From Patescibacteria group bacterium UBA926 (GTDB lineage: Bacteria > Patescibacteriota > Doudnabacteria > UBA920), in assembly GCA_002293685.1 (NCBI GenBank), contig DBDS01000007.1, positions 40,140-104,139 of the forward strand: a stretch of 64,000 nucleotides of DNA, read 5' to 3'. Below, in pieces: positions 1,124-64,000 of the stretch (positions within the stretch are counted from its first letter, which is position 1; each line of letters begins with the position of its first letter). The notes under the pieces are model-generated. The model had not been told where the DNA came from. It made no database searches and was given only the letters and a program-made list of their open reading frames with translations. A program made the position numbers and the translations under genes.

Positions 1124-1142
1124 TAAAATAAATTAAGCTTCT

Positions 1143-1254
1143 TTGTCATCCTAAGTCCTGAGTCAATTAAAACCTACCTTGTCATTCTGAGTCCGCCAAA
1201 GGCGGACGAAGAATCCCATGAGATCCTTCAGTCACTCCGTTCCTTCAGGATGAC
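1143..1254. repeat. Family-A palindromic repeat, composite copy (about 1.5 units).
   Basis: TTGTCATCCTAAGTCCTGAGTC, then GTCATTCTGAGTCCGCCAAAGGCGGACGAAGAATCCCATGAGATCCTTC...CCTTCAGGATGACG. Near-identical to the copy at 48072-48150. Confidence 0.7.
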
Positions 1255-1663: not shown

Positions 1664-1706
1664 AATCCCCGGAAGCCTGAAAGGCTATCCGGGGTCTTTT
1701 TATTTT
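1664..1706. terminator. Bidirectional rho-independent terminator between the convergent 127-aa gene and valS.
   Basis: Hairpin CCCCGGAAGCCTGAAAGGCTATCCGGGG followed by TCTTTTTATTTT on the + strand. On the - strand the same hairpin is followed by TTCTTTTTT. Confidence 0.55.
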
Positions 1707-4003
1707 GGCCAGTTGGCGATAATGAGTGTTTTATCTTCCACGAGCTTACCTTCGCGTAACTTCTGCCATAGTACTTCTGTTACGAATGGCATGAACGGAT
1801 GGAGAAGTTTTAAAATGTGTAAGAGAATGTGAAGCAGTATTGCTTGAGTATTAGCTTTTTGATTTTCGTTCTGAATTTGTTCTTTTGTTGCTTCGATATA
1901 GACGTCTGCAAATTCTTTCCATACGAATTCATAAAGTGTTTGCGCCGCGTCATGAATGCGGAAAACATTCAAGCTCTTGGAAACAGATTCAATTGTTTCT
2001 GAAAGCTGGTTTAAGATGAGTTGATCGGCTTTGGTGAGCTTGTCATTCTGAGGCGAAGCCGAAGAATCTAGATCCTTCGCTACACTCAGGATGACAGCCA
2101 CTTCATCTGCAGAGATATTGGTTAGGATATATCTTGTGATATTCCAAAGCTTGTTCCCAAAGTGCTTCATACCTTTGATTTTATCCTCTGCTAAAGCGGT
2201 ATCTGTTCCAGGGGCTGTATTGAATACCAAGGCAAAACGCAATGCGTCGGTGCCGTATTTTTCAATCATGTCGAGCGGGTCGATAATATTGCCAAGGCTT
2301 TTACTCATTTTTTGGTTTTTGGAATCTCGGATTAAGCCGTGCAAATAAACATGTTCGAACGGAATTTGCCCTAAGTGATAACCGCTCATCAATACCATAC
2401 GAGCAACCCAGAAGAATAAGATATCGTATCCAGTTTCCATTACAGTTGTTGGATGGAAGGTTTTTAAATCCGGGGTTTCGTTTGGCCAACCTAAAGTAGA
2501 GAAAGTCCACAGTCCAGAAGAGAACCAAGTGTCCAAAGTGTCTTCGTCCTGAGTCCAGCCTTCGCCTTCAGGCGCTTCAATTCCTACATACATGTTACTG
2601 TCATCCTGAGCATCACTGTCATCCTGAGCGTTAGCGAAGGATCCATTATCAGATTCTTCATTCCGCTTCGCTCCACTCAGAATGACAGGGGTAGTTTTGT
2701 ACCAAACAGGAATACGATGCCCGAACCAAATCTGACGAGAAATACACCAATCGCGCAAGTTATCTATCCAGTGGAAGTAGGTTTTGTTAAAGTGATCTGG
2801 AAAAATTTTTATTTGCCCGCTTGTTACCACTTGCCGCATTAACTCTTTTAACGTGGTTTCTGTGCCTGAATCAATTCCTTCAATTTGAGACTTCTTTAAA
2901 GTAAAAGGTTTATTTACATCTAAGAACCACTGCAGTTTCGGTAATGGCTCGATAATGCCACCGCTTCTTTCGGCTGTGGCAACATTTTGTTTGACCGATT
3001 CTTCGCGCTCCAATAGATTCTCGCTTCGCAACCATTCGACAATGGCTTCACGCGCCACTGTTGTTTTTTGATCAATCACACCTTCTTGCCCAGCGGTCAT
3101 TTTTGCAAACTCGTTAATGACTTGCTTGAAAGGAAGCTTGTGTCGTTCGCCGATTTCAGCATCAACTTGGCTATGAGCTGGAGTGACGCCCAAAGCACCA
3201 GTTCCAAATTCTGGGTCAACGCTTTCTTCACCAATAATTTTGATGTGAAGTTGTTCACCTGCAAAAGTAACATCAAATTCTTGACCGATAAATTGTTTGT
3301 AGCGAGCATCTTCAGGATGAACTGCAACTGCGGTGTCACCAATTTTGGTTTCCGGGCGTGTGGTAGAAATTGAGATAGGGAAGTCGGCGCTATATTTGAA
3401 AGTATAAAGAGTCGCTTCACGCTCTTCGTGAACAATTTCGTCATCAGAGATAACAGTTTGGCCTTTCGGATCCCAGTTGATTACTTTGTGCGCACGGTAA
3501 ATTAAACCGTCGTCGTACATATTCTTAAAAGCTGTGCGAACAGCTAGACTGCGAGGTTCGTCTAAGGTGTATGCTTCGCGGCTCCAATCAACGGAAGCAC
3601 CAAGCGCTTTGATTTGACCAACGATTGTGTCGCGACTTTCTGCTGCAAATGTTTCCACGCGCTTTACGAATTCTTCACGACCTAAATCGGTTTTGCGAAC
3701 ACCTTCTTTGGTTAAGATTTTTTCTACTTTGGATTGGGTCGCGATTGCAGCGTGGTCTGTTCCTGGTAACCATAAAGTCTTGCGTCCTTGCATGCGACGG
3801 AAGCGAGTGAGTATATCTTGAATTGTCACGAACAGCGCGTGGCCAACATGAAGCGTTCCAGTCACGTTTGGGGGCGGCATGATAATAGAGAACGGTTCGC
3901 CGTCACCTAAATTATCTGGGTTAAAATACCCAGAATCTAGCCAGTTTTGGTAAATATCCGCTTCGTATTTTGAGGCTTCATAGGCCTTATCTAGTTCAAT
4001 CAT
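1700..4003 (-). CDS. valS: Valyl-tRNA synthetase (class I aminoacyl-tRNA synthetase). It carries two in-frame family-A repeat insertions.
   Basis: HIGH motif (PNVTGTLHVGHAL) and KMSKS motif are present. CP1 editing-domain region and anticodon-binding region are present. 767 aa. Inserted peptides AVILSVAKDLDSSASPQNDK and NEESDNGSFANAQDDSDAQDDS are encoded by repeat DNA. Confidence 0.93.
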   Translation of the reverse strand: MIELDKAYEASKYEADIYQNWLDSGYFNPDNLGDGEPFSIIMPPPNVTGTLHVGHALFVTIQDILTRFRRMQGRKTLWLPGTDHAAIATQSKVEKILTKEGVRKTDLGREEFVKRVETFAAESRDTIVGQIKALGASVDWSREAYTLDEPRSLAVRTAFKNMYDDGLIYRAHKVINWDPKGQTVISDDEIVHEEREATLYTFKYSADFPISISTTRPETKIGDTAVAVHPEDARYKQFIGQEFDVTFAGEQLHIKIIGEESVDPEFGTGALGVTPAHSQVDAEIGERHKLPFKQVINEFAKMTAGQEGVIDQKTTVAREAIVEWLRSENLLEREESVKQNVATAERSGGIIEPLPKLQWFLDVNKPFTLKKSQIEGIDSGTETTLKELMRQVVTSGQIKIFPDHFNKTYFHWIDNLRDWCISRQIWFGHRIPVWYKTTPVILSGAKRNEESDNGSFANAQDDSDAQDDSNMYVGIEAPEGEGWTQDEDTLDTWFSSGLWTFSTLGWPNETPDLKTFHPTTVMETGYDILFFWVARMVLMSGYHLGQIPFEHVYLHGLIRDSKNQKMSKSLGNIIDPLDMIEKYGTDALRFALVFNTAPGTDTALAEDKIKGMKHFGNKLWNITRYILTNISADEVAVILSVAKDLDSSASPQNDKLTKADQLILNQLSETIESVSKSLNVFRIHDAAQTLYEFVWKEFADVYIEATKEQIQNENQKANTQAILLHILLHILKLLHPFMPFVTEVLWQKLREGKLVEDKTLIIANWPK
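2041..2096. repeat. Family-A repeat, short copy, inserted in-frame inside valS.
   Basis: TGTCATTCTGAGGCGAAGCCGAAGAATCTAGATCCTTCGCTACACTCAGGATGACA. Translated on the minus strand it gives AVILSVAKDLDSSASPQNDK within ValRS. Confidence 0.7.
2598..2689. repeat. Family-A repeat with a duplicated left terminus, inserted in-frame inside valS.
   Basis: CTGTCATCCTGAGCATCACTGTCATCCTGAGCG...CTCAGAATGACAG. It encodes the acidic, low-complexity ValRS segment NEESDNGSFANAQDDSDAQDDSNMY. Confidence 0.7.
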
Positions 4004-4179
4004 AAATTTATAAATTAAAAAGACACCAATCCGCTTGCGCAGGGTGTCTAGAGTTTGGTAAGTTCTAACTTACCAAACGGTACCATCTAGAGCTTTCGCT
4101 TAATTTTTCCAGATTACGGTTGGGGCCGACAGGTTCTACTCGCTGGGATTATCCCGAGCTTTCTTCCTGTACCTATCCG

Positions 4180-18233: not shown

Positions 18234-18555
18234 ATATTTTAAATTTTAGCTGGACTTTATAAGAGTTCAGCGGTACTGTTGTCCTTATGAATAATTAGAC
18301 ACAGAAAGGAGCTTGTAGAGAAAAACGTTGATTCTTAAGGAGAAAATCCGTATAATAATAGTAACAATTTATTAAGTAGCCTAAACCGTTTTTATTGGCG
18401 GCATGGTGAAAAGCCCCATGGAAAATACTGAACCCTGCGTTCAGCGTCCTTCCATGGGCCATATCGGGAAACTGATATGGAAGCTTCGGCTTCAGCTGGC
18501 GTGGGGCTTTGTGTTATACAAAGCGTGAAGCCAGCAGAAAGACCCATGGAAAACA

Positions 18556-31810: not shown

Positions 31811-31885
31811 TGGTAGCGCTACGGGGAATCGAACCCCGATTACCAGGATGAAAACCTGGCGTCCTAACCATTAGACGATAGCGCC
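31811..31885 (-). tRNA. tRNA-Glu (anticodon UUC), CCA encoded.
   Basis: Minus-strand cloverleaf: acceptor GGCGCTA / TAGCGCT, D-loop AATGGTTA, anticodon stem CCAGG/CCTGG with loop TTTTCAT, T-arm CGGGG-TTCGATT-CCCCG, ACCA 3' end. Confidence 0.8.
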
Positions 31886-34683: not shown

Positions 34684-35934
34684 ATGAACAATCCATTTGA
34701 ATCTGCGAAAAAACAATTGCAAATAGCAGCCGATACCGCGCAGCTAAATCTAAATCAGGTTGAAAGATTGATGCATCCAGATAGATACATCGAGGTTTCT
34801 ATCCCGGTAGAAATGGATGACGGTTCGCAAAGAATCTTTGAAGGCTTTAGAAGCCAACACAACAATACCATGGGGCCATACAAAGGTGGTATTCGTTATC
34901 ACCAAGACGTTAATCTTGATGAAGTAAGGGCTTTAAGCTTTTGGATGTCTTTTAAAAATGCCGTTATTAATGTTCCTTTTGGTGGTGGTAAAGGTGGAAT
35001 TATTGTAAACCCAAAAGAGTTATCCGAAACCGAATTAGAAAAACTTTCTCGTGGTTACATGCGTCAAATGTGGCGAAATTTCGGTCCGGAAATTGATGTT
35101 CCTGCACCGGATGTAAATACCAACGGTACAATTATGGGCTGGATGCGCGATGAGTTTGAAAAGCTTAGCGGTACAATCGCGCCGGGAGTAATCACAGGTA
35201 AAGCAATTGAAGATGGTGGTAGTGAAGGTCGAACAGAAGCAACTGGTTTTGGCGGCGGTTATATACTTAGAGAAGCCTTGGAAGCAGGTTTGATTTCCCC
35301 TCCTTCTCAAGGAGGGGTGGCCGAAGGCCGGGGTGGTCTAACCATTGCAATCCAAGGGTTTGGTAACGTAGCTACTTATTTGTCTGAATATGTTGCCCAG
35401 CATGGTTTCAAAATAGTTGCGTTGTCTGATAGCAAAGGTGGTGTTTATAGTTCAGATGGTATAGATGTCAGTTTGGCAGAACAGCATAAGAAAATTTCAG
35501 GCTCACTCAAGGATTTAGAAGGAACTTCAGAAATTACTAACGAGCAATTATTAGAACTTGATGTTGATGTATTAGTTCCAGCCGCTTTGGAAAATGTATT
35601 TACAGCAGAAAACGCTGAAAAGATTAAAGCGAAATTTATTCTGGAAATGGCGAACGGTCCAACTACTCCAGAAGCCGACGAAATTTTTGCTAAGAATGGC
35701 GTTACTGTTGTGCCTGATATTTTAGCTAACAGTGGAGGGGTATGTGTTAGTTATTTTGAGTGGTATCAAAATATGCACAATGAGAAGTGGTCAAAAGAAG
35801 ATGCTCTAAAGAAATTAGATGAACACATGGTTGCTGCTTTCAAAGAAGTACGCGATGCTCAAGTAAAATATAATTGTACTCTGCGAACCGCAGCCTATAT
35901 CGTGGCAGCAAACCGAATTCTTTCAAAAATGTAA
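34684..35934 (+). CDS. gdhA: Glutamate dehydrogenase (Glu/Leu/Phe/Val dehydrogenase family). It carries an in-frame family-B repeat insertion.
   Basis: Catalytic Lys box GPYKGGIRYH. NAD(P) site GFGNVA. The inserted peptide ISPPSQGGVAEGRGGL is encoded by repeat B. Confidence 0.85.
   Translation: MNNPFESAKKQLQIAADTAQLNLNQVERLMHPDRYIEVSIPVEMDDGSQRIFEGFRSQHNNTMGPYKGGIRYHQDVNLDEVRALSFWMSFKNAVINVPFGGGKGGIIVNPKELSETELEKLSRGYMRQMWRNFGPEIDVPAPDVNTNGTIMGWMRDEFEKLSGTIAPGVITGKAIEDGGSEGRTEATGFGGGYILREALEAGLISPPSQGGVAEGRGGLTIAIQGFGNVATYLSEYVAQHGFKIVALSDSKGGVYSSDGIDVSLAEQHKKISGSLKDLEGTSEITNEQLLELDVDVLVPAALENVFTAENAEKIKAKFILEMANGPTTPEADEIFAKNGVTVVPDILANSGGVCVSYFEWYQNMHNEKWSKEDALKKLDEHMVAAFKEVRDAQVKYNCTLRTAAYIVAANRILSKM
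35297..35338. repeat. Family-B GC-rich double-hairpin repeat, inserted in-frame in gdhA.
   Basis: CCCCTCCTTCTCAAGGAGGGGTGGCCGAAGGCCGGGGTGGTC. Confidence 0.7.
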
Positions 35935-45091: not shown

Positions 45092-45553
45092 ATGAATAGT
45101 ATTGACAGTATTTTGAATATGATTCGGACTGAAGCGGGGGAAAGAACTGCAAGTGCACGCACTGATCGATTGAGCGTTTCTGAGCTCGAACTGTATCAGC
45201 AGGTACAGTCAGAAGATGTGAACGAAGTTAGGATTTCAATTACGAATGAGCAGATCGAAGAAATCATGCATGCGGGTGCGTCTAACCCGAGCTATCATTC
45301 AAGCATCGATTGGGTTATAGAAACAACTCCTGAGTATGCTTTTATCGACAGTTTGGGTGTAACGGCATTGCCTGTACTTCGAAAGCTTTTGGCTGAAGAC
45401 TTCCATGATCAGTTAGTAGTAATTCACTTGCTGGGGAAACATGAACCTTTCTGTCCTGAAATTCCAGAGGAGGCACTAAGCCGTGTTCAGGAACTTAGGC
45501 GGATCTGGTTGGAATTTATTGAGTCCCACTCGCTTCTGACGGAAGATGGTTAA
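45092..45553 (+). CDS. Hypothetical protein.
   Basis: 153 aa. SD GGAGGG. Followed by the first copy of the duplicated terminator. Confidence 0.45.
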   Translation: MNSIDSILNMIRTEAGERTASARTDRLSVSELELYQQVQSEDVNEVRISITNEQIEEIMHAGASNPSYHSSIDWVIETTPEYAFIDSLGVTALPVLRKLLAEDFHDQLVVIHLLGKHEPFCPEIPEEALSRVQELRRIWLEFIESHSLLTEDG

Positions 45554-45590
45554 AACAAAATCGGCCTTGCTTACAGCAGGCTGATTTTTA
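45552..45590. repeat. Direct repeat, copy 1: a terminator-like hairpin nearly identical to the trpS terminator at 46184-46222.
   Basis: AAAACAAAATCGGCCTTGCTTACAGCAGGCTGATTTTT versus AAAACAAAACCGGCTTGCTTACAGCAGGCCGATTTTTT. Confidence 0.7.
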
Positions 45591-45644
45591 TTTTGAGAAT
45601 ATATTGAATAGGACTTTAGAGGTGGTGTGTTATCATCATTACTT

Positions 45645-45690
45645 CCCCTCCTTATTTATGAGGAGGGGTGCCCGTAGGGCGGGGTGGTGG
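45645..45690. repeat. Family-B double-hairpin repeat, forward orientation, at the 5' edge of the DUF559 gene.
   Basis: TCCCCTCCTTATTTATGAGGAGGGGTGCCCGTAGGGCGGGGTGGTGG. Confidence 0.7.
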
Positions 45691-46108
45691 TATGAGATTA
45701 CATAATATTAAAAAATTATATAAACATCGAAAAAAATTACGAAACCAATCAACCTTAGCAGAAATAAGATTGTGGTATTATCTGAAAAAATCAAAATTGG
45801 GCGTAAAGTTTAGAAGGCAGCACAGTGTCGGACCATATATTTTGGATTTTTACTGTAGTAAGTATAAATTAGCAGTTGAGTTGGATGGTTCATCTCATGA
45901 TTTTGAACAAGCTTATTCACGAGATACTGCTCGCACAAAATATCTTGAAGACCAAGGGCTAATTGTTTTGAGATTTGAGAATAGGTTGGTCTTTGAAAAT
46001 ATTCAAGGGGTGGTTGATATGATTAGTTTACATTGTAACCACCCCGGCCTTTCAGGCCACCCCTCCTATCCGCCTTTGGCGGCAGGAGGGGAGGGAAAAC
46101 TTCAGTAA
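45668..46108 (+). CDS. DUF559 / Vsr-like (restriction-endonuclease-fold) endonuclease domain protein. Both ends of the ORF extend into family-B repeats.
   Basis: LAEIRLWYYLKK...FRRQHSVGPYILDFYC...AVELDGSSHD...LIVLRFEN matches DUF559. The likely true start is the internal Met (MRLHNIKK). Confidence 0.65.
   Translation: MPVGRGGGMRLHNIKKLYKHRKKLRNQSTLAEIRLWYYLKKSKLGVKFRRQHSVGPYILDFYCSKYKLAVELDGSSHDFEQAYSRDTARTKYLEDQGLIVLRFENRLVFENIQGVVDMISLHCNHPGLSGHPSYPPLAAGGEGKLQ
46039..46095. repeat. Family-B double-hairpin repeat, inverted orientation, at the 3' edge of the DUF559 gene.
   Basis: CCACCCCGGCCTTTCAGGCCACCCCTCCTATCCGCCTTTGGCGGCAGGAGGGGAGGG. Its reverse complement matches family-B architecture. 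Confidence 0.7.
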
Positions 46109-46183: not shown

Positions 46184-46222
46184 AAAACAAAACCGGCTTG
46201 CTTACAGCAGGCCGATTTTTTG
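46184..46222. repeat. Direct repeat, copy 2: the trpS terminator hairpin, overlapping the trpS stop codon.
   Basis: See copy 1. About 36 of 38 nt identical. Confidence 0.7.
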
Positions 46223-47161
46223 TTTGACTTCAGTTATAGTTGGAACGGCGATTTCTCTTGCTCGGGCAGCTCCATCATTGAGAATTTTGGAAAGCTCAGA
46301 TTTATCGTTGAGTAATTCCTTTTTACGCTTTCGGAAATCTGCAAAATGATCGCTGATTGTTGTAGCTAGTACAGACTTCAATTCACTGTATCGAATTTCA
46401 CCCGATTTCTGTTCAGCAGTAAATTTATCGACGACGCTTTTATCAGCAAAATAGCTTAGAGTTTCGATTAAGTTTTTAGCGCCTGTTTCAGTCGTGACCG
46501 CCTTTTTTAACTTTGCTTCGATAATTTCTGGAGTGTCGTCCAGATAGAGAGGGTCATCGCCAGTTTTGCTCATCTTCTTGTCCGGATTTTTTAAACTCAT
46601 TATTCGAAGAGGCTTGCGTTCGTACGGTTTTGGCTCTGGAAAAGTTTCGCCAAATTGTCTGTTGAATTTTCGTGCAATTATTCGAGCGAGTTCTAAGTGC
46701 TGAACCTGATCTTCACCAACAGGAACAAAATTTGGTTTGTATAATAGAATGTCTGCGGCCATTAAGGTAGGGTAGGTAAGCAGACCAGCGTTTACGGAAT
46801 CTTTCTGGGATCGCCCCTTATCTTTATATTGAGTCATTTTCTCGAGTTCGCCAACTGGAGTTATACAATTAAATATCCAAGCCAGCTCGGCATGTTCTAA
46901 AACATGGTTTTGGATAAAGATAACCGATTTCTTTGGGTCGAGTCCGGCAGCAATGTATTCAGCCACAACTTCCAGAGTATCTTGGCGTAATTTTTCTGGA
47001 TCACGAGGAACTGTTAAAGCATGTAAATCCGCCACAAAGAAATAGCACTCAAGTTTCCCTTCATTTTGAATATCTACGAATTGCTTCAAGGCCCCGAGAT
47101 AATTGCCGATGTGCATTCGGCCAGTTGCCTGAACTCCTGATAAAATAGTCTCTTTTTTCAT
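46202..47161 (-). CDS. trpS: Tryptophanyl-tRNA synthetase.
   Basis: HIGH motif (TGRMHIGNYLG). KMSKS (KKMSKT). 319 aa. Confidence 0.9.
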   Translation of the reverse strand: MKKETILSGVQATGRMHIGNYLGALKQFVDIQNEGKLECYFFVADLHALTVPRDPEKLRQDTLEVVAEYIAAGLDPKKSVIFIQNHVLEHAELAWIFNCITPVGELEKMTQYKDKGRSQKDSVNAGLLTYPTLMAADILLYKPNFVPVGEDQVQHLELARIIARKFNRQFGETFPEPKPYERKPLRIMSLKNPDKKMSKTGDDPLYLDDTPEIIEAKLKKAVTTETGAKNLIETLSYFADKSVVDKFTAEQKSGEIRYSELKSVLATTISDHFADFRKRKKELLNDKSELSKILNDGAARAREIAVPTITEVKQKIGLL

Positions 47162-48071: not shown

Positions 48072-48150
48072 GTGTCATTCTGAATCCGCCAAAGGCGGAC
48101 GAAGAATATCATGGAGATCCTTCGGTCGCTTTGCTCCCTCAGGATGACAT
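48072..48150. repeat. Family-A palindromic repeat, intergenic.
   Basis: GTGTCATTCTGAATCCGCCAAAGGCGGACGAAGAATATCATGGAGATCCTTCGGTCGCTTTGCTCCCTCAGGATGACAT. Confidence 0.7.
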
Positions 48151-50079: not shown

Positions 50080-50587
50080 AGTTTATAAATGTACGTTTTC
50101 CGTACTTTGATTATAGAAAAAGTTTTTGCATTTCTGTGAGAACTTTCAATTTCTGTGCACGGAACGCCTAAAAAATTGTTCGCGTCGTGCGGGTGAACTT
50201 GTTGAAAATTCTGTAACATCCGGAATTGCATCGAAAAACTTAGATGCTAATAGCAAAAACTTTTTCATTAATAATTTTTGTGTTGATAGAATTCGAGAAA
50301 TTTTGGTCTGTATAATTTTGTCTCCAAAATAAATCTAAGATTCTAGGAATCAGGGAAGTGGCTTCCGGGGCCGCCTTCGCATGACTTTTACAAACATCTT
50401 GTTTGCAATTAACACATGAATGCTTACTTGATCTGTCATCCCAAGTCCGCTAAAGACGGATTAAGGATCTCAAATAAAAACTCATCTATTAATTGAGTAA
50501 GTTTAGTATACCAGTCATTGGCTTTTTTGTCAACCAACTTTTACCAGAAAACCCTTAAATAAAGGGTATTTTGACCAGTGTTGTATT

Positions 50588-52703: not shown

Positions 52704-53024
52704 ATGGCATGGGGAGATAATAGTAAATTTTCGGAAGACGAACCATTGTGGTCGTTGGTTAAAGAAAGCTCAGGCAGTACTACAATTACACTAATGGCAG
52801 AGACCAGGACTGCTCGCGATGAACGACATAGCGGTAAAGAGCCCAGTGACCGCAAAGAGACAGTGGTTGATTTGGACGAAGATCTCAATCGCTTCATTAA
52901 CAAAAACCGTCGCGATTGTAGACATGAGGAGTTGCTTGCTTTAATTCAAGTGGTATCGGTAGAATCCGTCGCGCTTGAAGCGAGGAAGATTCGAGCACAA
53001 AAGACTACTTCAAGTATTTTATGA
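52704..53024 (+). CDS. Hypothetical protein.
   Basis: SD AGGAGGG 7 nt upstream of the ATG at 52704. Charged, about 106 aa. Confidence 0.35.
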   Translation: MAWGDNSKFSEDEPLWSLVKESSGSTTITLMAETRTARDERHSGKEPSDRKETVVDLDEDLNRFINKNRRDCRHEELLALIQVVSVESVALEARKIRAQKTTSSIL

Positions 53025-54891
53025 TGGCCTCAGCTTTTGCTTCACCAACGAGCTTGGTGAGTTCTTCTATCGGTGCGTGTTTGATTTGATCAACCGTACC
53101 GATTTTTTGTTTCAGTAATTTTTTAGTTTTTGGTCCGATTCCTGGAATCGAGTCGAGTGCAGATTTTGTAGCCTGTTTGCTTCGCAAAGATTTATGGAAT
53201 GTGATGCCAAATCTATGGGCTTCGTCGCGAAGTCTTTGTAATAGTTGAAGAACTGGATTGTCGTGGGACAATACTATCGGATCTTTTTGGTTGGGTAAAA
53301 AGATTTCTTCGATTCGCTTGGCAAGTCCAATCACAGGGATTTTGAGTTTAGCTTCTTTTAATGCTTCTACAGCCATTTTGAGCTGACCTTTACCACCGTC
53401 TATAACTAGCAAGTCTGGAATAGGCCACGCGTCTTTGGGGTCGGTAGGATTTACGCGAGTAAGTCGTCGCCCCAGCATCTGTTTCATCATGGCGAAATCG
53501 TCTGGAGTTTGTTTACCTGTGATTTTAAATTTGCGATACTCAGATTTTGCAGCAACACCATCTTTGGCGACGACCATACTTCCAACCGGATTGGTTCCTT
53601 GCGTGTTGCTTATGTCGTAGCCTTCAATCCGTCTTGGGGTAGTTGGCAATTTGAGTAATTTTTTTAACTCAGCCAAAGTTTCTTGAATCAAATCTGAATT
53701 ACTAGCTTGACTGCGTTGCCATTTCATCAGATGTTCCTTTGCATTTGTTTCACCCATGGCAATGAGTTTTAGTTTTTGACCACGAGTAGGGGAGCTAATC
53801 GCGATTTTAGTTTTGGTACGTGTTGCTAGAAGTGTAGTGAGTAATGGTTTGTTTGGTAGTTCGATTTGGGTGAAAATTTCCTTTGGTAAATCGGTCGCTT
53901 CGGCGTAATACATCTCTGAAAAAGCTTGAAGCACAGTTGCTCCGCGTTCTTCTTCTGGAATCGCCAACAAATTTTGATACAAGAAATTCTCTTTGTCCAT
54001 TAATTTGCCTTCGCGGACCTTGAAAAGGTTTACTCCAGCTGTGAGGCTGTCGCAGTAAATTGAAATAAAGTCCCATGACACTTTTTTGGTTAGAACCGTG
54101 AGTTGCTTTTCTTGCAGAACGGCAATGGCTTTGAATTCATCTCTAAGACGCGCCGCTTTCTCGAACTGTTTTCGTCTCGCCGCGACTTTCATCTCGGCTT
54201 GAATTTGTTTAACTATTGGTGCGGTTTGGCCAGAAAGGAACAAAGAAATTTTTTGAATGTGCAAATCATATTCTTCAGGAGACATTAAGCCGATGCAAAC
54301 TCCTGGACAACGATGGAGGAAATAATAGAAGCACGGGCGCTTGCCGACTTCTTTGTTGGCGCAAAAATGAAAGACGCGCCTAACTAAGTCTAAAGTTTGC
54401 CCAATTTTTTTGGTTGATGAGTACGGTCCGAAGAATTTATCCCGGGTTTTTTCCTCCCTTCGGGATGAAGTCAAGGAATCTAAGTTTTCCCCTCCTCGCT
54501 TGCGAGGAGGGGTGGCCCGTAGGGCCGGGGTGGTGTCTTCAACTTTACGAACATAAGTAATTTGCGGAATCTCAGTAGAATAATCGATTTTAATAAACGC
54601 GTAATTTTTATCATCACGCAACATGATGTTGTACGGAGGGAGATGCTCTTTAATCAGAGTATTTTCTAAGAATAAACTTTCGAGTTCGGAGTTCACTACT
54701 ATATAATCGAAATCGGTTGCTTCAGCCATAAGGAAGGGGAGTTGAGCACGGGTGTCTGTGCCAGAAAAATATTGTGCCAATCGACTACGCAAAACTTTTG
54801 CTTTTCCCACATACAAAACAGTTCCAGTTTTATCTAGGAACTTGTAAACGCCCGGCTTGCGGGGAACGTCCTTGACTTTGTTTTTCAGCAT
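53005..54891 (-). CDS. uvrC: Excinuclease ABC subunit C. It carries an in-frame family-B repeat insertion.
   Basis: GIY-YIG (GVYKFLDKTGTVLYVGKAKVLRSRL). UvrBC domain. RNaseH-like and HhH C-terminus. The inserted peptide TTPALRATPPRKRGGENL is encoded by repeat B. Confidence 0.9.
   Translation of the reverse strand: MLKNKVKDVPRKPGVYKFLDKTGTVLYVGKAKVLRSRLAQYFSGTDTRAQLPFLMAEATDFDYIVVNSELESLFLENTLIKEHLPPYNIMLRDDKNYAFIKIDYSTEIPQITYVRKVEDTTPALRATPPRKRGGENLDSLTSSRREEKTRDKFFGPYSSTKKIGQTLDLVRRVFHFCANKEVGKRPCFYYFLHRCPGVCIGLMSPEEYDLHIQKISLFLSGQTAPIVKQIQAEMKVAARRKQFEKAARLRDEFKAIAVLQEKQLTVLTKKVSWDFISIYCDSLTAGVNLFKVREGKLMDKENFLYQNLLAIPEEERGATVLQAFSEMYYAEATDLPKEIFTQIELPNKPLLTTLLATRTKTKIAISSPTRGQKLKLIAMGETNAKEHLMKWQRSQASNSDLIQETLAELKKLLKLPTTPRRIEGYDISNTQGTNPVGSMVVAKDGVAAKSEYRKFKITGKQTPDDFAMMKQMLGRRLTRVNPTDPKDAWPIPDLLVIDGGKGQLKMAVEALKEAKLKIPVIGLAKRIEEIFLPNQKDPIVLSHDNPVLQLLQRLRDEAHRFGITFHKSLRSKQATKSALDSIPGIGPKTKKLLKQKIGTVDQIKHAPIEELTKLVGEAKAEAIIKYLK
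54490..54536. repeat. Family-B double-hairpin repeat, inserted in-frame in uvrC.
   Basis: CCCCTCCTCGCTTGCGAGGAGGGGTGGCCCGTAGGGCCGGGGTGGTG. Confidence 0.7.
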
Positions 54892-59247: not shown

Positions 59248-59457
59248 TTACTGACGTTTAAAAATATGCTCAATCGGTTTTCCAAAATGTTCCGCAATTT
59301 GCATTGCTAATAGAAGTGAAGGGGCATAGTTGCCTTTTTCAATTGCAATTACTGTTTGTCTGGATACGCCTAACTCAGACGCCAAGTCTTCCTGAGTTTG
59401 ATTACGTTCCTGTCTTAATTTTTTTATGTTGTTTTGTAGCATAAATTTCATTGTCAT
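59248..59457 (-). CDS. XRE-family helix-turn-helix transcriptional regulator.
   Basis: LRQERNQTQEDLASELGVSRQTVIAIEKG HTH_3 signature. 69 aa. Confidence 0.8.
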   Translation of the reverse strand: MTMKFMLQNNIKKLRQERNQTQEDLASELGVSRQTVIAIEKGNYAPSLLLAMQIAEHFGKPIEHIFKRQ

Positions 59458-59534
59458 CCTGAATCATTTTTGTCATCCTGAGCGAAGCGAAGGATCTCAT
59501 AAGGATTCTTCGTCCCGCCGTGGGCGGAACTCAG
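59452..59534. repeat. Family-A palindromic repeat with a duplicated left terminus.
   Basis: TTGTCATCCTGAATCATTTTTGTCATCCTGAGCGAAGCGAAGGATCTCATAAGGATTCTTCGTCCCGCC...CTCAGAATGACACC. Confidence 0.7.
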
Positions 59535-63442: not shown

Positions 63443-63454
63443 CATGCCTAGCAT

Positions 63455-63522
63455 GTCATCCTGAAGGAGCGAAGTGACTGAAGGATCTCAACGAAAGATT
63501 CTTCGCTACGCTCAGAATGACA
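63455..63522. repeat. Family-A palindromic repeat between hrcA and grpE.
   Basis: ATGTCATCCTGAAGGAGCGAAGTGACTGAAGGATCTCAACGAAAGATTCTTCGCTACGCTCAGAATGACAAAG. Confidence 0.7.
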
Positions 63523-63529
63523 AAGTATT

Positions 63530-64000
63530 ATGAATCAAGAAAATAACGAACAAGAAAAAATAGAATTTGAAGATGCCGACATGCAGAGACAGGTCGCCGA
63601 AGCTCAAGAAGAAGCCAAGATGAATTTAGCTGGATGGCAACGAGCTCAAGCAGATTTTGAAAACTACAAGAAGCGAGAGGAAGGCAAGCAAGCCGAACTT
63701 CTGGAATTCGCCAAAGAGGTAACAATTGTAAAATTGTTGCCAACTCTAGATGCTCTTGCGCAAGGCCTAGCCCATGCTCCAGATGGAGTAGATGAAAAAT
63801 GGCTCGTGGGAATCAAGGGCACCCTGGCAAATTTAGATAAAGTTTTGCAAGAAATGGGCGTCAAGAAAATTGAAGCTGTTGGTAAACCGTTCGATCCACA
63901 TTTTCACGAAGCTGTTCGTGAAGTGGAAGGTGAACAAGACGGCTTAATTGTAGAGGAGCTTCAGGTAGGATACGAAATCAATGGTAAGGTGATACGACCA
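63530..64000 (+). CDS. grpE: Nucleotide exchange factor GrpE, 3' partial (it runs off the window end).
   Basis: My own translation from the ATG at 63530 gives MNQENNEQEKIEFEDADMQRQVAEAQEEAKMNLAGWQRAQADFENYKKRE. It is not in the ORF track because there is no stop codon before the window end. Confidence 0.8.
   Translation, partial: MNQENNEQEKIEFEDADMQRQVAEAQEEAKMNLAGWQRAQADFENYKKREEGKQAELLEFAKEVTIVKLLPTLDALAQGLAHAPDGVDEKWLVGIKGTLANLDKVLQEMGVKKIEAVGKPFDPHFHEAVREVEGEQDGLIVEELQVGYEINGKVIRP

Follow-up and report, generated by a model that had tools for sequence, protein, structure and literature searches.

An in-frame double-hairpin repeat in uvrC of a Doudnabacteria (CPR) genome is a member of a repeat family found in many bacterial phyla

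The uvrC gene of a Doudnabacteria (CPR) genome carries a GC-rich element of two adjacent hairpins, which lies in frame in an inter-domain linker and encodes the peptide TTPALRATPPRKRGGE (amino acids 120-135 of UvrC) without frameshift or stop. The element belongs to a repeat family, here called family B, whose sequence boxes are near-invariant and which occurs in Bacteroidota, Acidobacteriota, Cyanobacteria, Proteobacteria, Chlamydiota, Verrucomicrobiota, Nitrospirota and Patescibacteria. Within the window, that is the whole stretch of 64,000 nucleotides analysed here, a covariance model built only from copies in other phyla finds exactly four members, scoring between 53 and 66 bits, whereas the next full-length hit scores 9 bits. 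Two of these lie in frame in housekeeping genes, uvrC and the gene for glutamate dehydrogenase (gdh), and the other two are inverted copies that bracket a gene for a DUF559 (Vsr-like) nuclease 8.4 kb away from the uvrC copy (Table 1).

Table 1. Family-B copies, their parts and their host or neighbouring genes in the window.
Position	Strand	Feature	Description and support
54487-54536	+	Family-B element in uvrC	Own orientation on the + strand, so that the gene reads its reverse complement; covariance-model hit 53.0 bits, E = 1.4e-14
54489-54512		Hairpin 1 of the uvrC copy	CCCCTCCTCGC/GCGAGGAGGGG
54514-54526		Hairpin 2 of the uvrC copy	GGCCC-GTA-GGGCC
54527-54535		Tail box of the uvrC copy	GGGGTGGTG
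54487-54534	-	UvrC codons 120-135	48 nt supplied by the element
53005-54891	-	uvrC	Intact 628-aa ORF, host gene; Pfam: GIY-YIG (aa 13-88), UVR motif (aa 227-255), two RNase-H-like domains, HhH; AF2 mean pLDDT 83.4, residues 121-148 below 50
54436-54534	-	Whole expanded UvrC linker, aa 120-152	TTPALRATPPRKRGGENLDSLTSSRREEKTRDK; 21 codons longer than in the sister genome, 16 of them from the 48-nt element; the rest is diverged linker with a small degenerate hairpin (TCCC-GAA-GGGA); DNA and protein alignments
34684-35934	+	Glutamate dehydrogenase ORF	Pfam GDH
35295-35339	+	Family-B copy in frame in glutamate dehydrogenase	Encodes SPPSQGGVAEGRGGL just before the IQGFGNV dinucleotide-binding motif; 65.7 bits
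45643-46093		B-DUF559-B unit	Two inverted copies bracketing the DUF559 gene
45643-45690	+	Family-B copy, forward orientation	Ends 1 nt before the ATG of the DUF559 gene; 58.7 bits
45692-46108	+	DUF559 (Vsr-like PD-(D/E)XK nuclease) gene	138 aa, last ~23 codons read from the downstream inverted copy; Pfam PF04480, E = 2.2e-31; all residues invariant across 45 homologs present
46036-46093	-	Family-B copy, inverted orientation	Overlaps the 3' end of the DUF559 gene; loop of hairpin 1 carries a nested hairpin, CCGCC-AAA-GGCGG; 52.9 bits

The observation made in the preliminary description, a family-B repeat lying in frame in uvrC, is confirmed. The sequence is present at 54489-54535, so that the position given there (54490-54536) is right to within 1-3 nt, and dinucleotide shuffles of the window give 0 expected matches. 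The element folds with an energy of -17.3 kcal/mol as single-stranded DNA (z = -4.8) and of -30.6 kcal/mol as the mRNA strand (z = -5.0), and at 72% GC it stands in a genome of 41% GC. The same insert is present in two independent assemblies, GCA_022842405.1 and a Logan assembly of SRR28154524, and is therefore not an assembly artefact. In a set of 120 UvrC orthologs the insert is absent from 118 others, including those at 88% identity (the closest distinct ortholog) and at 85% identity, and is thus lineage-specific. It had been proposed that orthologs from distant taxa sharing the peptide would speak against an insertion, but no UvrC ortholog does so; the string TTPALRATPPR recurs, however as the repeat-encoded C-terminal tail of an unrelated DUF559 protein (P0205). 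In the AlphaFold model the insert is predicted to be disordered (pLDDT 40-45) between confident strands, and the same linker carries other, unrelated inserts in 16 orthologs. In glutamate dehydrogenase the closest distinct ortholog (P0242, 88% identity) has GDRK in place of the repeat-encoded peptide, and the insert lies in a gap relative to solved GDH structures. Finally, about 38 kb of a syntenic sister contig contains no family member as against four in the window, and the sister also lacks the DUF559 gene at the trpS locus, where it has an empty site.

The interpretation offered in the preliminary description is only partly supported. It correctly recognised a true member of a repeat family inserted in frame between the GIY-YIG domain and the UVR motif, and a second housekeeping gene colonised by the same family. 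Its further proposal, that the insertion mechanism tends to preserve the reading frame, is not supported. The elements in the window are 45, 48, 50 and 58 nt long, and the lengths of 97 copies from other genomes show no excess of multiples of three. Moreover, the net length changes are +63 nt in uvrC for a 48-nt element and +30 nt in gdh for a 45-nt element, so that extra gain or loss of bases accompanied both events. Five or six of the six frames of these GC-rich elements lack stop codons. Survival of only in-frame events in essential genes explains the pattern without a special mechanism. The preliminary description also missed that the family is pan-bacterial and that inverted copies of it bracket a DUF559 nuclease gene.

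The consensus of the family is AAYT-CCCCTCCT-loop-AGGAGGGGTG-[variable stem-loop]-GGGGTGGT, with a length of about 45-58 nt. An exact-pattern scan of one genome per species returned at least 120 loci from at least eight phyla, including cultured Bacteroidota, and the left arm, which the pattern did not require, is conserved in them. Cultured carriers include Hymenobacter, Pedobacter, Bacteroides rodentium and Vitreoscilla filiformis. A MAFFT alignment of all copies misplaced this arm and was replaced by an in-register subset. The second stem covaries: the hairpin-2 pair at alignment columns 26-38 is CG in 31 copies and GC in 14, with none unpaired, and the covariation score is 0.078 against 0.017 in shuffles (0 of 500 shuffles reach it). 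An alternative pairing of CCCCTCC with the 3' GGGGTGG box was considered by eye and dropped because of a central C-U mismatch. Copies lie in frame also in AcrB, peptidase U32, a PLP enzyme, a P-type ATPase and MetRS, and a whole B-DUF559-B unit lies in frame in a Type ISP enzyme. Where copies are paired, convergent doublets are the commonest arrangement (25, against 10 tandem and 7 divergent). Neither a target-site duplication nor flank complementarity was found above shuffled controls, and no clear target motif was found.

The link to DUF559 rests on the arrangement of the loci. Among 80 metagenomic DUF559 loci, which are those most similar to the query and include one large cluster of 38, a forward copy lies upstream in 58 of 75 and an inverted copy lies at the stop codon in 56 of 75. 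Counted per cluster at 70% identity the figures are 16 of 25 and 20 of 25, as compared to 12 of 369 control windows, and a covariance-model search agrees. Many DUF559 proteins end in repeat-encoded tails. Conversely, DUF559 was the only specific (non-superfamily) protein family that recurred next to randomly sampled copies, yet it did so at only 7 of 120 loci, or about 6%. The DUF559 profile matches PDB 3hrl and the nuclease domain of a proven homing endonuclease, I-Bth0305I (PDB 3r3p, E = 7e-4; PMC3239194), whereas NCBIfam returned only a generic DUF559 model, scoring below its curated cut-off. E. coli genomes have a DUF559 gene, but a blastn search of all complete E. coli genomes with the 45-nt consensus found no copy of the element; the link therefore concerns a subfamily, that with the motif KFRRQHS[VI]G, and not all of DUF559. 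The same search of PLSDB plasmids found none either, and IMG/VR viral contigs gave only 22 hits, none next to DUF559, so that phages are not an obvious vehicle. PADLOC defence models gave only a marginal DpdF match (E = 0.0046, 12.7 bits), and the 153-aa ORF next to the DUF559 unit has no Pfam, NCBIfam or PADLOC match. Literature searches on DUF559 with repeats, on the sequence strings and on Vsr-like genes with inverted repeats found no description of the element or of the link.

Taken together, we consider it more likely than not, though with moderate confidence, that the uvrC segment is a solo copy of a small REP/RPE-like selfish DNA repeat whose probable partner is DUF559. In this view the copy inserted into a permissive, disordered linker after this lineage split from its nearest sequenced relative, would be translated as a Pro/Arg/Gly-rich loop and tolerated, and remains in frame because only in-frame, stop-free events survive in an essential gene. 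The family exists as singlets, as in uvrC and gdh, as gene-less convergent doublets, and as full units in which two inverted copies bracket a DUF559 gene. By analogy with REP/REPIN elements and their RAYT transposase, the DUF559 nuclease would recognise the conserved boxes and hairpins, cut there and so drive copying of singlets and doublets in trans, probably through a repair or template-switch route since no target-site duplication is seen. Whereas the insert, its absence from orthologs, its family membership and the flanking of most sampled DUF559 genes are established by our analysis, the partnership with DUF559, as well as any cleavage or mobility, is inferred by us from sequence and analogy alone. 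It has to be considered that PD-(D/E)XK nucleases cut DNA but do not by themselves join strands. In addition, the hairpin-1 loops differ among the four window copies, so that these are not very recent copies of one master.

A less likely alternative is that DUF559 is a homing-type selfish gene which targets pre-existing copies of the element, or settles between them, without mobilising them, the repeat itself being spread by a different enzyme or by replication or repair template switching at hairpins. The profile match to the I-Bth0305I nuclease domain, the lack of any strand-transfer domain in DUF559 and the many copies without a DUF559 gene nearby are in support of this notion, and gene-less convergent doublets could be empty target sites. 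However, the sister lacks both the repeats and the gene, which fits joint arrival, the boundary at the stop codon is very tight and constant in orientation across diverged DUF559 clusters, and no other enzyme family recurs next to the repeats. It appears unlikely that the element is a host-beneficial structured RNA or DNA signal, such as an mRNA stabiliser, a pause site or a protein-binding site, and that the uvrC copy was selected for a regulatory or structural effect on UvrC. The strong hairpins with covariation in stem 2 and loops of GNA, GNRA or UUCG type, together with the conservation of the boxes across phyla, would agree with such a role. Then again, Rfam 15 gave only noise-level matches on the uvrC copy at E up to 10 and no relevant hit at gathering threshold in the window or in 8 loci from other phyla, copies occur in either orientation relative to genes, in coding and non-coding DNA and in unrelated proteins, the closest relatives function without the insert, and the peptide is predicted to be disordered. 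Nor is the element an intrinsic terminator, since the hairpins are followed by GGGGTGGTG and not by a run of T, or a CRISPR array, since the four window copies are 8-10 kb apart and in both orientations and tandem copies at one other locus (L018) abut without spacers. Chance resemblance through ordinary divergence of a linker that varies in length among orthologs, or an assembly error, is refuted by the covariance-model score, the shuffles, the GC content and the two independent assemblies.

What would follow if the link holds? It would give DUF559, a very common domain of unknown function, a testable role, and would add a new enzyme class to the short list of systems that maintain hairpin repeats in bacterial genomes. 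It would show that in-frame colonisation of essential proteins by selfish palindromes, long seen as a Rickettsia peculiarity, is widespread and occurs in CPR bacteria, Bacteroidota, Acidobacteriota and Cyanobacteria. It would also explain the many odd 'PLLxKEG', 'SPPxxGGVxxGRGG' and 'TTPxxxxTPP' peptides at protein ends and in loops as repeat-encoded, which matters for gene calling, protein-family alignments and structure prediction. More tentatively, and rather less likely than not, a subfamily of DUF559 nucleases may be the dedicated partner of a pan-bacterial double-hairpin repeat and thus form a second, mechanistically different REPIN-RAYT-like system, based on a PD-(D/E)XK nuclease instead of an HUH transposase, that would disperse singlets and doublets through genomes of at least eight phyla and routinely write extra Pro/Gly/Arg-rich loops into housekeeping proteins.

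Among known systems, Rickettsia palindromic elements (RPE; Ogata et al. 2000, 2002, as summarised in PMC10969869) are likewise palindromic selfish repeats without a transposase of their own, which are inserted in frame into unrelated housekeeping genes and translated as extra surface peptides tolerated at permissive sites; in-frame insertion into unrelated genes at permissive sites is also what we find for uvrC, gdh and the other in-frame copies. RPEs are about 100-150 bp, restricted to Rickettsia and have no known partner enzyme. The element described here is 45-58 nt long, consists of two short hairpins plus conserved G-rich boxes, occurs in at least eight phyla, in this case in a Doudnabacteria genome, and brackets a DUF559 nuclease gene. 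REP/REPIN elements with their RAYT transposase (PMC3116915; PMC3733652) are also short GC-rich hairpin repeats that occur as singlets and inverted doublets without target-site duplication, are lineage-specific in their variants and flank a single partner gene in inverted orientation. In the present family, however, the flanked gene encodes a PD-(D/E)XK Vsr-like nuclease and not an IS200/IS605-like HUH Y1 transposase, no transposase family recurs near the copies, and the ends are AAYT-CCCCTCCT and GGGGTGGT(T) with no terminal GTAG or CGTC tag. Moreover, REPs are extragenic by definition and differ in sequence between species, whereas the boxes described here are nearly identical across phyla and copies enter coding regions. 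Bacterial MITEs found inside genes (ERIC, BOX, Correia, RU-1/2/3; PMC10969869, PMC2759123) are non-autonomous repeats with inverted ends, as are present in the family-B doublets, and can make in-frame fusions with host ORFs, but they derive from IS elements with DDE transposases and make target-site duplications, neither of which is seen here. The EDxHD/Vsr-like homing endonuclease I-Bth0305I (PMC3239194) shares a related nuclease fold with DUF559, and its gene is selfish with a mobility that depends on DNA cleavage; yet it sits in a group I intron and has NUMOD DNA-binding modules, whereas the DUF559 genes described here are free-standing, about 120 aa long and flanked by hairpin repeats. Finally, the GC clusters of yeast mitochondrial genomes are short GC-rich palindromic mobile clusters in an AT-rich genome, sometimes inserted in frame in coding genes, but they belong to an organelle, are unrelated in sequence and have no associated nuclease gene bracketed by copies.

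The preliminary description had placed an in-frame copy of a repeat, termed family B, in the minus-strand uvrC gene of this Candidatus Doudnabacteria (CPR/Patescibacteria) genome, and this observation holds. The sequence it reported is present in the window, for which shuffles give 0 expected matches, and it lies in an open reading frame of 628 amino acids that Pfam identifies as a complete UvrC, with a GIY-YIG domain at residues 13-88, the UVR motif at residues 227-255, two RNase-H-like domains and HhH. On the coding strand the element reads ACC ACC CCG GCC CTA CGG GCC ACC CCT CCT CGC AAG CGA GGA GGG GAA, which gives TTPALRATPPRKRGGE, corresponding to residues 120-135. It folds into two adjacent hairpins, hairpin 1 being CCCCTCCTCGC-TT-GCGAGGAGGGG and hairpin 2 being GGCCC-GTA-GGGCC, with an energy of -17.3 kcal/mol as ssDNA (z = -4.8) and of -30.6 kcal/mol as the mRNA strand (z = -5.0). 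Its GC content is 72%, as compared to about 41% for the window. The coordinates of this and all other features are compiled in the table.

Positions of the repeat copies and associated features in the window and, where indicated, in loci of other genomes (bits for the first four rows refer to the covariance model R1)
Feature	Sequence	Position	Strand	Bits	Context
Repeat copy in gdh	window	35295-35339	+	65.7	in frame in glutamate dehydrogenase
Repeat copy upstream of DUF559	window	45643-45690	+	58.7	ends 1 nt before the DUF559 ATG
Repeat copy in uvrC	window	54487-54536	+	53.0	in frame in uvrC
Repeat copy downstream of DUF559	window	46036-46093	-	52.9	overlaps the DUF559 3' end
Sequence reported in the preliminary description	window	54489-54535			within uvrC
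Element codons of uvrC	window	54487-54534			aa 120-135
uvrC	window	53005..54891	-		628 aa
Remainder of expanded linker with weak hairpin	window	54436-54480			next to the element in uvrC
DUF559 gene	window	45692-46108			138 aa
Nested hairpin CCGCC-AAA-GGCGG	window	46064-46078			loop of hairpin 1, copy downstream of DUF559
Terminator-like hairpin, 44 nt	window	45553-45596; 46184-46227			on either side of the DUF559 unit
ORF without family match	window	45092-45553			153 aa
Family A copies	window	2070-2096; 2648-2698			inside valS
valS	window	1700..4003	-		valyl-tRNA synthetase
Further family A copies	window	1134-1254; 48073-48150; 50434-50474; 59442-59515; 63453-63531
Central hairpin of family A (example)	window	1196-1208
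LOOT RNA (Rfam gathering level)	window	18378-18493	+	70.2
tRNA (Rfam gathering level)	window	31814-31885	-
Copy-DUF559-copy unit	L009	about 2500-4175			in frame in a Type ISP restriction enzyme
Tandem array	L018	3743-3868
Tandem array	L068	1427-3054
Tandem array	L158	1280-1436; 1972-2127

The uvrC segment is an insertion, and a recent one. Among 120 aligned UvrC orthologs only the window and its near-identical twin (ortholog P0001; a near-identical genome is GCA_022842405.1) carry the peptide, whereas the next relatives, P0002 (88% identity, 607 aa) and P0003 (85%), read VRKVESNPSSPTGKNRYFGPYSS where the window has 21 more residues. The DNA alignment with two assemblies of the sister lineage shows the gap directly, and since the insert is identical in an NCBI assembly and in a Logan assembly of SRR28154524 it is not an assembly artefact. 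The remainder of the expanded linker contains a weak hairpin (TTCC...TCCC-GAA-GGGA-GGAA), which may be a decayed second repeat and accounts for 5 of the 21 extra codons. An AlphaFold2 model computed with an 80-sequence alignment is confident overall (mean pLDDT 83.4), yet residues 121-148 fall below pLDDT 50, lack secondary structure and sit between confident strands at 110-114 and 152-157. The same linker is a hot spot, as sixteen orthologs carry other inserts there, several of them clearly repeat-encoded. A second hot spot near core position 457-464, between the RNase-H-like domain segments, carries repeat-encoded peptides in 23 orthologs, one example being EGVNTSPNPSLKGGGY, apparently from a third hairpin family. 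In addition, many CPR UvrC orthologs (P0014, P0017, P0021, P0022, P0024, P0026, P0050, P0073, P0076, P0107 and P0116) carry a conserved N-terminal extension of 70-115 residues (...TIYIVKR..KTIFVGRLKQIRRRF...) that the window's protein lacks.

Repeat finding picked up related copies in the window, and we then built a covariance model (R1) from 45 copies taken only from other phyla and searched the window with filters off. This returned four full-length hits, the next full-length match scoring 9 bits. The copy in gdh contributes SPPSQGGVAEGRGGL just before the IQGFGNV motif, where the closest distinct ortholog, P0242 (88% identity), has GDRK, a net difference of +30 nt, and where solved GDH structures have a gap. 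The two remaining copies are inverted relative to each other and bracket a DUF559 gene (Pfam E = 2.2e-31), whose last ~23 codons are read from the downstream copy. The syntenic contig of the sister genome has no hit to the model at all across the roughly 38 kb that corresponds to window ~25-64 kb, and it has no DUF559 gene between trpS and the hydrolase gene. As nucleotide identity between the two lineages is 82-84% in gdh and uvrC, all four copies and the nuclease gene are differences between two fairly close lineages. At the DUF559 locus the sister genome contains a single 44-nt terminator-like hairpin between the hydrolase gene and trpS, which in the window occurs twice as a direct repeat (82% identical), and it also lacks the 153-aa ORF; we have no explanation for how this 1.1-kb difference arose.

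A second repeat family in the window (TGTCATYCTGAG...hairpin...GAAGRATC), termed family A in the preliminary description, has two copies in frame in valyl-tRNA synthetase, giving peptides such as VILSGAKRNEES and VAVILSVAKDLDSS, and similar peptides occur as inserts in the UvrC orthologs P0062, P0064 and P0109. The hairpin nested in the copy downstream of DUF559 is identical to the central hairpin of family A, which suggests that small hairpin modules are inserted into one another.

Outside the window, a scan of one genome per species with the exact pattern AGGAGGGGTGSCC-N3-8-GSCGGGGTGG returned at least 120 loci from Bacteroidota, Acidobacteriota, Cyanobacteria, Beta- and Gammaproteobacteria, Chlamydiota, Verrucomicrobiota, Nitrospirota, Thermodesulfovibrionales and Patescibacteria, the Bacteroidota including cultured Hymenobacter, Pedobacter, Rufibacter, Salinimicrobium and Bacteroides. 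The pattern did not require the left arm (T)CCCCTCCT or a 4-6-nt loop, yet both are present in almost every hit. In hairpin 2 the pair at alignment columns 26-38 is CG in 31 sequences and GC in 14, with none unpaired, and longer stems are compensated; the covariation score is 0.078 against 0.017 in shuffles (0 of 500 shuffles reach it), and slid controls fall to 0-0.022. Loops are mostly GNA triloops, or GNRA or UUCG-type tetraloops. The form of hairpin 2 and the immediate flanks are lineage-specific, with long GCCCGCGNAGCGGGC stems in Burkholderiales, GCCCAAAGGGC followed by TAGGT in Bacteroides and GCCCTTCAGGGC in Chamaesiphon, which argues for long residence and proliferation within lineages rather than recent transfer of one sequence. 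The conserved extent is AAYT-CCCCTCCT...GGGGTGG-T(T)(G), and no target-site duplication was detected. Rfam has no family for the element, and the consensus is absent from PLSDB plasmids and E. coli genomes and rare in viral contigs.

Most copies are intergenic, but several lie in frame inside proteins whose Pfam domains span the insert, namely an AcrB-family transporter (locus L098), peptidase U32 (L053), a PLP-dependent enzyme (L076), a P-type ATPase (L036) and MetRS of another Patescibacteria genome (L064). In L009, from a Bacteroidales MAG, an entire copy-DUF559-copy unit is in frame inside the C-terminal specificity domain of a Type ISP restriction enzyme, so that the Pfam domain matches in two pieces, an arrangement that looks like an intein but has no splicing domain. 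Other CPR orthologs carry related inserts at the same sites as in the window. The gdh site is filled in P0256 (79% identity) by a short form without hairpin 2 (SPPSERGARGGL) and in P0296 by a 40-aa insert while closer relatives are empty, which implies independent hits, or loss, at one site, and UvrC P0114 has ...SPNEGRVAEGRE... in the opposite orientation. This points to repeated independent hits at permissive loops.

DUF559 was the only specific (non-superfamily) protein family that recurred near randomly sampled copies, at 7 of 120 loci. Many DUF559 proteins from diverse bacteria end in peptides encoded by the reverse strand of the element, such as TTPALRATPPR, NHPTPPGHPSLKRRG, NHPSLTKEGS and PPRPCGAPLLGKEG, and some start with forward-strand peptides. 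In 80 metagenomic DUF559 loci oriented on the gene, a forward copy lies within 250 nt upstream in 58 of 75, an inverted copy begins at or just after the stop codon in 56 of 75, and both are present in 48 of 70. The covariance model gives the same picture, with 361 hits in 188 kb stacked at these two positions. When counted per cluster at 70% identity (27 clusters) the figures are 16 of 25 and 20 of 25, as compared to 12 of 369 control windows in the same loci. Hairpin 1 always forms the outer end and the GGGGTGGT/ACCACCCC box the inner end. The same convergent pair, with only 18-60 nt between the halves, is the commonest arrangement among neighbouring copies in the genome loci (25, against 10 tandem and 7 divergent); these are gene-less doublets. 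The element also forms tandem arrays in loci L018, L068 and L158: three copies at a 42-nt period, seven copies about 194 nt apart around a DUF559 gene, and runs at a 53-nt period upstream and downstream of DUF559. The DUF559 profile matches PDB 3hrl (E = 1.8e-30) and, weakly, the nuclease domain of the homing endonuclease I-Bth0305I (3r3p, E = 7e-4), and published classifications group Vsr, DUF559 and that enzyme together (PMC3424549; PMC3239194). The window's protein keeps every residue that is invariant across 45 homologs.

Taken together, our analysis establishes that the uvrC segment is a member of a widespread, structured repeat family and a lineage-specific insertion in a disordered linker, that the family also enters other proteins in frame, and that inverted copies bracket DUF559 genes as a rule. 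That the DUF559 nuclease mobilises or maintains the repeats, as RAYT does for REP/REPIN, that copying proceeds by cleavage and repair or by template switching, and that the insert is translated and neutral, we infer only. But why would the copies in uvrC and gdh be in frame? The interpretation in the preliminary description is only partly supported, since its proposal that the insertion mechanism itself often preserves the reading frame is not borne out by the evidence: element lengths show no excess of multiples of three, the net changes of +63 nt and +30 nt do not equal the element lengths of 48 and 45 nt, and almost all frames are open. Selection on essential genes is therefore sufficient to explain the in-frame copies. 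The main alternative to our reading reverses the arrow, in that DUF559 would home into or between pre-existing repeats. A regulatory role for the hairpins is possible but has no specific support.

No paper in the literature we could search, which leaves out most subscription journals so that prior description cannot be excluded, describes this repeat family or its link with DUF559. In-frame palindromic repeats are known from Rickettsia, and hairpin repeats with a partner gene are known from REP/RAYT (PMC10969869; PMC3116915; PMC3733652). What appears to be new in comparison with these systems is this particular family, with near-identical boxes across phyla, and its inferred partner, a PD-(D/E)XK DUF559 nuclease.
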